The notes: generated from the letters alone by a model not told the origin. Shown: positions 30,680 through 32,548, counted from the first letter of the whole stretch. The stretch: DNA of 63,971 bases, filler included, from Licmophora abbreviata (GCA_900291995.1; 11 parts of 11 records of this genome joined end to end with filler, not necessarily neighbours in it), one strand, 5' to 3'. Numbers and translations: made by a program.

Positions 30680-32548
30680 TCAATAGCTACTCGTAAGCAT
30701 TTCCTGCACCATGTGTGTTGTGTAGAACATCATATGCGTTGCAATCAAGGCCACAACCTCGACACTCATCCTCGTCCACCACCACCACAACATACTTCCA
30801 AAGGCCACAAGCTGTCCAACAATCATGGGATGCGGAATCGTATTGTACGGGAATCCCTCGATCCACTCAGGCTTGACAAAGCCTAACTCACTTCCAAAGT
30901 ACGTCCGACAAAATCCCAACTGTGCCGTTGCCAAGAGCGTAATACCGAATCCCATCATGGCCAAGAGGATTCCGGGCGCATCCTGCGGCAACTCGATGAG
31001 AGGGACCATGCGAGAGCCCAAGTGCATGAGCGCAAGTGTCTTGTAGAGCTTCGCATCGCGCATCAAGTAGCCGTGTGCCACATTGTCTCGAAAGGCAAAG
31101 GTACAAATGTAAATGCAGTAGTGGCGAAAGGAGGTCAAGATCATAAAGACAGTGGGTGAAGTGCAGCAGTATGCGGCAGTGACGTAGACCACATTGCTCC
31201 ATCCGACGTGTTCTTCCCACATGGCATTGAACCAGGTCGTCAACCAGATCCACCAGGCCAATAAAAAGCCACTGATACCCTCTGGACGGAGTGTCTTCAA
31301 AAAGTTCCCACGCGCCCAGGTGTTGTAATTTGTATTGAGTCGAGCACAGAGATTTCCATACCAGTGCCATCCTTTGGGGTAGACAATATAATGGAGTTTG
31401 AGCAGGGAGCGACGCTCTTTGTTGACAACCCCCGGCACATGATCAATCCAATGCAACTCTCGATTGTAATCAAAGCCCAGTACACTGTAAATATCGACAA
31501 CTTGATCTTGCGAATTGTGTTGCAGATTGAAGCGAGTCCGTACCATGGCATTGGGCGTGACACCCACAAGGACACGATACAAGCTCGCCCCGGGCAAGAA
31601 CCAGTAGGGTCCATCCGTATGAGGCGTATAAAAGACAGCATCACTGTTGATATCCCTCTTGGCCCCCACCGCCGTGACATAGATTTCATTCATCTCCACA
31701 ACAGGTCGAATGTCAAAGTGCGTCTTGGAAAAGACGTTCCGAAATCCCGCATAGATGCTGGCATCGTCCTGCAGGAGCGTCGTGGGCCCACTCGTCGCCG
31801 GGCGGTCGTGCGGCCAGAGGTGGGTCGTTTCGGGAATGTGTGCGACCTGCGTGTGAATCCACTCTCGCAAGTCCCGTACGGCCTGTTGCGCACTGACCGT
31901 GGGCACCACGACGGTGCGATTTTTAGAAACAAAGAGTTTGGGAAGAAAGGAGTAGCGAAGGGTAATGGAGTCCAAGACGAGGGGGAGGAGCCAGAGGGTG
32001 TGGAGAAAGAGCATCGTGGGACGTGAGTAGAGGTAGGAGGCCATGTAGGTTTGTTCGGCAAAGACGTAGTGGGAAAGATCTTGGAGGAGGTATCCCAAGA
32101 GCATGGCTGCAAGACAGACTGTTAGGTGAGATTGTTCTTGTGTCATGAAAGTAGTGTCGATCCAAGCGTTGTTGTTGTTGTTGTTCCAGATCGAGTCGGT
32201 GACTTGATCCAGTTGAAGCTGCGGCAGTTTCATCATGGCCGTGACTAGGAGTGTGTGCAGGAGAGCGGTCCATTTTAGTGGCGTGGTGAGTAGAATGACT
32301 GCCATGTAAACGTAGACGACCCATTCGTAATCATAGTAATGGCAGAGCAGTGAAACAGCACCCCAAACTGCCATTCCTGTAGTAAGCATATGACATGCCA
32401 CGTTCAAGTCATGCTTGTGGTAGGGATGGAACTCATGACTGACTTGTGCGTAGGCAGCTTTGGAGATGAACGTGTTGTAGAGCGAGTATTTAGACGTAGA
32501 AGTAGACGGAGGCGTCTTATCCTTGACACTCGTAGTGGAAGTAGTCAT
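30680..32548 (-). CDS. Uncharacterised 622-aa membrane protein: Mpo1/DUF962-like N-terminus, HxD..H oxygenase-like middle, PEMT-like C-terminus
   Basis: FHPYHKHDLNVACH and LQDLSHYVFAE (Mpo1-like His motifs); SDAVFYTPHTDGPY...FDYNRELHWI...RSLLKLHY; LGFCRTYFGSELG...GFPYNTIPHPMIVGQL (phospholipid methyltransferase-like). Intronless ORF. Confidence 0.75.
   Translation of the reverse strand: MTTSTTSVKDKTPPSTSTSKYSLYNTFISKAAYAQVSHEFHPYHKHDLNVACHMLTTGMAVWGAVSLLCHYYDYEWVVYVYMAVILLTTPLKWTALLHTLLVTAMMKLPQLQLDQVTDSIWNNNNNNAWIDTTFMTQEQSHLTVCLAAMLLGYLLQDLSHYVFAEQTYMASYLYSRPTMLFLHTLWLLPLVLDSITLRYSFLPKLFVSKNRTVVVPTVSAQQAVRDLREWIHTQVAHIPETTHLWPHDRPATSGPTTLLQDDASIYAGFRNVFSKTHFDIRPVVEMNEIYVTAVGAKRDINSDAVFYTPHTDGPYWFLPGASLYRVLVGVTPNAMVRTRFNLQHNSQDQVVDIYSVLGFDYNRELHWIDHVPGVVNKERRSLLKLHYIVYPKGWHWYGNLCARLNTNYNTWARGNFLKTLRPEGISGFLLAWWIWLTTWFNAMWEEHVGWSNVVYVTAAYCCTSPTVFMILTSFRHYCIYICTFAFRDNVAHGYLMRDAKLYKTLALMHLGSRMVPLIELPQDAPGILLAMMGFGITLLATAQLGFCRTYFGSELGFVKPEWIEGFPYNTIPHPMIVGQLVAFGSMLWWWWTRMSVEVVALIATHMMFYTTHMVQEMLTSSY

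Follow-up and report, generated by a model that had tools for sequence, protein, structure and literature searches.

A three-domain membrane protein encoded beside BTA1 in the diatom Licmophora abbreviata is a candidate synthase of the betaine lipid DGTA

Diacylglycerylhydroxymethyltrimethyl-β-alanine (DGTA) is one of the principal membrane lipids without phosphorus in diatoms, picoalgae, chrysophytes and brown algae, and it is an isomer of diacylglyceryltrimethylhomoserine (DGTS). With DAG standing for diacylglycerol, DGTS is DAG-O-C4H2-C3H2-C2H(NMe3+)-C1OO- and DGTA is DAG-O-CH2-CH(COO-)-CH2-NMe3+. DGTS is made by BTA1 or by the bacterial pair BtaA and BtaB, and BTA1 of Phaeodactylum alone yields DGTS in N. 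benthamiana (bioRxiv 2024.07.11.603045). For the onward synthesis of DGTA, descriptions since 1992 have gone no further than an unexplained "decarboxylation/recarboxylation" of DGTS, a route that was still an assumption in 2023, when its enzyme and mechanism were stated to be unknown (PMC10685587). Here we describe gene X, a reading frame found next to BTA1 in a 63,971-nucleotide stretch of joined records from Licmophora abbreviata (GCA_900291995.1; the whole stretch is called the window below), which encodes an Mpo1-like domain, an Fe(II)/2-oxoglutarate (2OG)-type double-stranded beta-helix (DSBH) domain and a PEMT-like domain in one chain.

X shares its pathway context with BtaA/BtaB and BTA1, as operon partner, divergent neighbour, fusion partner and co-induced gene, but it is unrelated to them in sequence and fold, it is found in a small minority of btaA genomes, and BTA1, unlike the activity proposed for X, stops at DGTS. 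It is very probable that X works in the betaine-lipid pathway, because of its repeated linkage to BTA1 or btaAB, a fusion to both synthase parts, and co-induction of its presumed Phaeodactylum orthologue. X is also likely to be the DGTA synthase, a candidate for which we infer substrate, product and order of steps. An earlier note on this DNA had proposed a multi-step lipid-modifying enzyme, naming no substrate or pathway and overlooking the divergent BTA1 neighbour; the present evidence narrows that proposal to a betaine-lipid head-group conversion.

A conserved protein of three domains

Gene X is a single intronless open frame of 622 codons on the minus strand, and the longest open reading frame in 200 rounds of shuffling the region was 215 amino acids. 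A word-indexed search gave 181 homologues from 6533 candidates, the best 120 of which are 51-67% identical to X, nearly all across most of its length, and HMMER, run in full against 1.84 billion representatives, found 585 matches at E<=0.001. Since full-length homologues align, X is intronless here and the domain fusion is no chimera; a chimeric or mis-predicted frame is ruled out by full-length homologues everywhere, and very AT-rich contigs (L021 and L024, GC 0.20-0.25) also carry them. The matches bear names such as "hypothetical protein" or "phospholipid methyltransferase". None of five X proteins scanned against NCBIfam fell into a family there, the family profile gave two chance matches only against the sequences of solved structures, and a search of plasmids for X returned no match. 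X is a real, conserved, unnamed enzyme family.

The earlier note had read the protein as a fusion of Mpo1-like, HxD..H oxygenase-like and PEMT-like parts, a reading that holds across full-length homologues, and all of its quoted motifs are present: YHKHDLNVACH (residues 43-53), QDLSHYVFAE (156-165), FYTPHTDGP (306-314), ELHWI (364-368), R380, TYFGSELG (549-556) and GFPYNTIPHPMIVG (565-578). Conservation was scored on 101 sequences, dereplicated at 62% identity from 305 full-length ones, and H310, D312, H366, R325, D360, E288, H476 and G545 are invariant in all of them, including the HxD..H residues that the note had pointed out. An AlphaFold model built with 94 sequences (mean predicted local distance difference test score, pLDDT, 91.6) has a helical membrane domain at either end and a beta-rich middle between them. 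Lack of a predicted DSBH fold or metal site, or loss of the His and Asp residues among homologues, had been named as grounds for abandoning the reading; the fold is predicted, and the His and Asp residues of the putative metal site are kept throughout. Judged from these alignments, all three domains look catalytically maintained.

For the middle domain (residues 203-415), a DSBH fold is predicted by the AlphaFold model and supported by three fold searches, in agreement with the original proposal. Foldseek ranks Fe(II)/2OG dioxygenase folds highest, the best at E ~1e-3 with none lower; VIA-align superposes the domain on a viral prolyl hydroxylase with Z 11.6, root-mean-square deviation (rmsd) 3.6 and 159 aligned residues, all of its top 50 rows being of the Fe(II)/2OG dioxygenase class; and an Atlas structure search returns the same fold. 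The domain thus resembles PHD2, vCPH, AndA and PhyH-like enzymes in its fold and invariant HxD...H triad, but it belongs to no Pfam or NCBIfam family, is only 7-16% identical to solved members and sits between two membrane domains. Its last strand also carries RxxxKxH in place of RxS, the usual last-strand motif of Fe(II)/2OG dioxygenases. R380, K384 and H386 are each conserved in 100 of the 101 sequences, and the basic residues R380, K384 and R325 (the last in 101/101) are placed by the model at strands 381-391 or 322-329, which makes them candidates for the basic residue that would bind C5 of 2OG.

The N-terminal domain is more divergent from its named family, and Pfam on X itself gave no match to PF06127 at E<=1. 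Among 77 near-full-length relatives picked from the best 150 of the 585 HMMER matches, 27 matched PF06127 at E<=0.05 and one exceeded the curated cut-off; two bacterial X homologues score above that cut-off. In the reverse direction, a profile search with the X domain found stand-alone Mpo1-like proteins with H-x4-N-x3-H aligned, and Q..H likewise in the best match (E 3e-11). The Mpo1-like assignment is based on these homologue matches and the reciprocal profile match. The domain resembles Mpo1/YGL010W/DUF962 in that its H-x4-N-x3-H and Q-x3-H-x4-E align with stand-alone members, and the Joint Genome Institute (JGI) labels some X homologues "YGL010W"; it differs in being fused, in that most X members fall under the Pfam cut-off with the window protein undetected, and in that the domain may stand at the C-terminus (about ten permuted proteins) or be absent. 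H44 (91/93), N49 (88/93), H53 (90/93), Q156 (97/99), H160 (95/99) and E165 (97/99) are conserved, and an insertion at about residues 112-140 varies among diatoms.

PEMT (PF04191) is the only Pfam match on X, at residues 526-610 with 27.7 bits against a cut-off of 25, and it was matched at E<=0.05 in 71 of the 77 scanned relatives. As had been predicted, annotation therefore sees only a phospholipid methyltransferase, and UniRef names agree. E554 (99/101), H573 (98), H605 (99) and E616 (98) are conserved. Folded alone, the C-terminal domain reaches pLDDT 96.2; its top VIA match, ICMT (5vg9), has a Z of 6.8, no higher than background (rmsd 3.8, 113 aligned), and Foldseek with this isolated model gave no significant match. 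The likeness to PEMT/Opi3 lies in the score above the Pfam cut-off, and the differences are that the PEMT part makes up some 85-180 of the 622 residues, that it is joined to two oxygenase-type domains, and that X is linked to btaAB and not to phosphatidylcholine (PC) synthesis. Each domain of X is of known fold; for their combination, for the link to the pathway and for the reaction that these imply, no characterised precedent was found in the material searched.

Linkage to betaine-lipid genes

In the window, X and BTA1 are transcribed divergently. The window BTA1 matches DUF3419 at E 1e-66 and a class I methyltransferase in Pfam, and is 83%/69% identical to the single-frame BTA1 of a metagenome locus, L004. 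We examined 80 of 393 metagenome X loci, among which five diatom-type organisms had more than 1 kb upstream of X; in four of them (L004, L013, L016/L017 and L018) BTA1 lies head-to-head with X without a gap, which excludes a scaffolding artefact as the source of the adjacency. The fifth (L002/L003) has the ankyrin-PP2C gene beside X with no BTA1 between them (L002:1283-6133), and BTA1 has moved or been lost there. At two other loci X is convergent with btaAB (L068) or has btaB upstream (L067).

Scanning 185,579 prokaryote genomes with a sequence pattern returned 31 X loci, mostly in Planctomycetota and Myxococcota, an undercount since the pattern fits 96 of 129 representatives. btaA adjoins X in 19 of them: 16 in the order btaA-btaB-X on one strand, one as X-btaA-btaB (BD1-7 clade) and two convergent. 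The remaining 12 comprise one with only btaB beside X and 11 with neither gene, nine of which have btaA elsewhere in the genome, so that btaA is present in 28 of 30 X-bearing bacterial genomes tested. The reverse does not hold: btaA occurs in 78 and X in 2 of 401 Planctomycetota genomes, both with btaA, and 251 Pirellulaceae genomes contain btaA in 186 and full X in 12, with btaA present in 12/12 and adjacent in 11/12 (these 12 overlap the 31-locus set). The twelfth, non-adjacent Pirellulaceae X adjoins a PBP-family binding protein gene. Upstream of the btaA-btaB-X operon, a calcineurin-like phosphoesterase gene, putatively PlcP, was present in 4/4 loci scanned for it.

The differing X/bta layouts fall on separate branches of a FastTree tree of 102 rows (8 diatom rows dropped), whose deep nodes are weak and from which no direction of transfer is claimed. 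In one protein of 1231 residues (P0206), X (3-573) is fused to DUF3419 (594-949) and a methyltransferase (from ~1040), that is, X-BtaA-BtaB in one chain. As a separate observation, three bacterial loci have an Rce1-like gene of the CAAX protease family immediately 5' of X (L067:635-1798, L164:5231-5884, L183:5310-5912), and that of L067 is fused to a cNMP-binding domain.

Expression data come from Phaeodactylum. Under phosphorus deprivation for 48/72 h, Phatr2_42871 ("phospholipid methyltransferase, putative") rose by log2 2.45/2.90 and BTA1, Phatr2_42872, proposed there as a DGTA-pathway gene, by 2.31/2.73, with 42870 flat at 0.27/-0.70 (PMC5825098). The L004 BTA1 matches two published Phatr3_J42872 primers exactly (a third, at the cDNA start, is unmatched), and it stands head-to-head with a protein 59% identical to that of the window.

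Named carriers of X are pennate diatoms, Ostreococcus lucimarinus, Prasinococcus, Rhodomonas sp. CCMP768, Ochromonas/Hydrurales CCMP1899 (an Ochromonas strain relabelled Hydrurales sp. by EukProt), Chrysochromulina tobinii and Chromera velia; one cluster includes a transcript labelled as the ciliate Tiarina fusa, which may derive from its prey. Among these, Ostreococcus and Ochromonas are genera with reported DGTA, and O. tauri has BTA1 with DGTA reported as its sole betaine lipid (PMC7407893). Planctomycete BtaA has been placed at the base of a marine protist clade with Mamiellales, haptophytes and diatoms (PMC10685587), and the spread of X is the same as that of this clade of planctomycetes and marine protists. 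DGTA has also been reported from Cryptococcus, by mass and retention time (PMC6383925), and further background is found in PMC13235166, PMC3853752, PMC9892843 and PMC12942017.

The proposed reaction and its rivals

We propose that X, in an extraplastid membrane of algae or the cell membrane of bacteria, would convert DGTS from the neighbouring BTA1 or BtaA/BtaB into DGTA, using Fe(II), O2, probably 2OG, and S-adenosylmethionine (SAM). The DSBH domain would oxidise an N-methyl carbon, which would be joined to homoserine C3 through an iminium/enamine (Mannich-type) or radical step; the Mpo1-like iron site would then carry out an alpha-oxidation in which C1 leaves as CO2 and C2 becomes the new carboxylate; and the PEMT-like domain would re-methylate the amine to trimethylammonium. 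Mpo1 cuts C1 off a 2-hydroxy acid in one step (PMC10398889). Because an Mpo1-type cut leaves a C2 carboxylate, the CH2-N arm on C3 would have to come from the N-methyl carbon, a carbon open to oxidation by an Fe/2OG site, and loss of C1 with formation of a new carboxyl would match the old "decarboxylation/recarboxylation" without CO2 fixation. In the 1992 work of Vogel and Eichenberger, C1 was reportedly lost on the way from DGTS to DGTA. A Stevens [1,2]-shift by the DSBH domain alone was rejected, as C1 would be retained and the product would be a homologue with one carbon more than DGTA. Built from the usual reaction of each domain, the favoured chemistry is put forward tentatively, as about half of the case for a DGTA synthase. 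It is equally tentative that X founds a new family of single-chain, two-iron-site, SAM-dependent membrane enzymes that rebuild the carbon skeleton of a head group by this chemistry.

The same product could be reached by another route. A DGTS precursor would undergo decarboxylative desaturation in the DSBH domain, the PEMT-like domain would transfer a methyl group from SAM to C3, and both iron sites would oxidise that methyl to a carboxyl. This route, which takes its share of the probability assigned to DGTA synthesis, accounts for the "recarboxylation" through a carbon derived from SAM; Fe/2OG decarboxylases are known, with TraH among the fold matches at the level of the general fold, and the distant forms of X keep the DSBH and PEMT pair when the Mpo1 domain is absent or moved. 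However, PEMT/ICMT-family enzymes are known to methylate nitrogen or oxygen, a vinyl-trimethylammonium makes a poor nucleophile, and the enamine variant needs a reductase that no domain supplies, so we regard it as rather unlikely. Other chemistries leading to DGTA take the remainder of the DGTA hypothesis.

Linkage and co-induction would fit equally well if X made some other change to a betaine lipid, such as hydroxylation, Mpo1-type chain shortening, or acyl or head-group methylation, giving an undescribed lipid or a step towards diacylglycerylcarboxyhydroxymethylcholine (DGCC). Some dioxygenases are known to hydroxylate lipids that lack phosphorus (OlsD), and such a role would account for the missing matches in Chloracidobacterium and brown algae. 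We consider it unlikely because no product other than DGTA is documented to arise downstream of DGTS through an orphan enzyme, and in view of Ostreococcus carrying X when O. tauri, despite its BTA1, is reported to have DGTA alone, and of the invariant methyltransferase domain, which suits a head-group reaction. Degradation or recycling of DGTS by oxidative head-group removal, releasing DAG or nitrogen, would suit the two oxidative domains, and the Phaeodactylum lists show X under phosphorus deprivation only, with BTA1 oppositely regulated in nitrogen deprivation; yet a conserved SAM-methyltransferase domain would be unneeded, and the operon position, the synthase fusion and induction as betaine lipid accumulates suit biosynthesis, which makes degradation highly improbable. 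Equally hard to credit is an ordinary phospholipid N-methyltransferase, converting phosphatidylethanolamine to PC, or a DGTS helper methylase in which the other domains are incidental. The Pfam score and UniRef names speak for it, but the oxygenase residues are conserved as strongly as the PEMT ones, BTA1 needs no helper for DGTS, X is induced under phosphorus starvation, when PC drops, and most btaA genomes do without X (2 against 78 in the Planctomycetota set).

Several observations weigh against X as the DGTA synthase, or thin the evidence for its linkage. The 16 btaA-btaB-X operons belong mostly to one Pirellulaceae clade, two of the 11 genomes without adjacent bta genes, both metagenome-assembled, contain no btaA, and the fusion is one cluster of two members (P0206/P0272) one residue apart; a search of longer proteins with a diatom alignment found no fusion in 2531 candidates, and it missed the known one too. 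The ankyrin-PP2C gene stands in the block both here and in L002/L003, so diatom synteny is in part simple inheritance. btaA was found near none of the prasinophyte-type loci among the 80 metagenome loci, near none of the 80 viral loci examined, and its profile matched only 6 of the 160 metagenome and viral loci together, none of them prasinophyte-type. About ten relatives are circularly permuted, in the order DSBH-PEMT-Mpo1, without a btaAB link, and two Pirellulaceae PEMT-DSBH proteins (L201:5394-6770 and L202:5397-6782) lack Mpo1 and lie away from btaAB. That Phatr2_42871 (Phatr3_J42871) is the X of Phaeodactylum is a strong inference from gene number, PEMT label and the L004 locus, and the betaine lipid of Phaeodactylum Pt4 has been assigned as DGTS from data called ambiguous (PMC5063337). 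Chloracidobacterium, whose main lipid is DGTA (PMC12816986), is absent among the matches of the prokaryote scan, with its 96/129 pattern, and of the homologue searches, neither of which searched its genomes directly; this gap is weak but real. No brown alga, a group of DGTA makers, and no fungus is named among the X matches of these incomplete searches, and no lipid analysis of X-bearing bacteria, planctomycetes included, was found in the literature covered (PMC7828035, PMC12493201).

If X is the DGTA synthase, it would serve as a genetic marker of oceanic DGTA and of lipid remodelling under phosphate limitation, DGTA would be predicted in planctomycetes and myxobacteria, giant viruses might be supposed to carry a cut-down X to remodel host membrane lipids, and hundreds of "phospholipid methyltransferase" annotations would be corrected. 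A three-decade-old orphan reaction would become a one-gene question in a tractable diatom (through the presumed Phatr3_J42871) and in culturable bacteria. The literature covered names neither a DGTA synthase nor gene X; most subscription papers, including a 2025 Prog Lipid Res review, lie outside it and may hold an earlier proposal.

Divergent relatives and other features of the window

The Mpo1-like domain is C-terminal in P0201, P0208, P0210, P0213, P0214, P0247, P0255, P0259 and the protein at L094:7791-9500. The Mpo1-less PEMT-DSBH gene of L201 is flanked by glycosyltransferase, AMP-binding and methyltransferase genes, and perhaps belongs to another lipid pathway. Of 109 viral X-like loci, 80 were examined (L081-L160), and 71 of the 80, on giant-virus-type contigs, encode 350-440 residues with an intact DSBH domain, a degenerate C-terminal membrane region and no Mpo1 or PEMT motifs. 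Over all 80, HxD occurs in 78 loci, PEMT motifs occur in 2-4 and Mpo1 motifs in 5; a few contigs carry full or permuted forms (L100 and L110; L094 and L134), and the viral contigs gave no match to the X-BtaA-BtaB fusion protein or to BtaA. The viral DSBH forms possibly remodel host lipids.

Table 1 Features of the X locus in the window
Feature	Position	Strand	Description
Gene X	30680..32548	-	622 aa (P0001); Mpo1-like, Fe/2OG DSBH and PEMT-like membrane enzyme; candidate DGTA synthase
PEMT/ICMT-like membrane domain	30689..31231	-	aa 440-620; Pfam core 526-610; conserved H476, G545, TYFGxELG, FPY, HPMIxG, H605, Q615-E616
Soluble Fe(II)/2OG-type DSBH domain (predicted)	31304..31942	-	aa 203-415; triad H310, D312, H366; conserved R325, D360, R380, K384, H386
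Mpo1-like membrane domain	31949..32476	-	aa 25-200; conserved H44, N49, H53, Q156, H160, E165, H183
Divergent X/BTA1 intergenic region	32549..33294	.	possible shared promoter; scaffold gap 32846-32945
BTA1 (DGTS synthase)	33295..35544	+	BtaA/DUF3419 then BtaB methyltransferase; interrupted by scaffold gap 34592-34691
Ankyrin-PP2C gene	35739..37364	-	third gene of the block conserved in diatoms

The membership of the ankyrin-PP2C gene in the block is probably synteny only. Scaffold gaps occur at 11 places between 20836 and 61644, each composed of 44 N, a 12-base AT linker and 44 N, and they are assembly placeholders, not biology. Three light-harvesting genes of the chlorophyll a/c-binding type lie at 24016-25576 and 40546-41391, two of them convergent neighbours and one confirmed by Pfam; such genes are ordinary for a diatom. 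A gene at 39508-40218 on the minus strand encodes a signal-like N-terminus followed by two antibiotic biosynthesis monooxygenase (ABM) domains.

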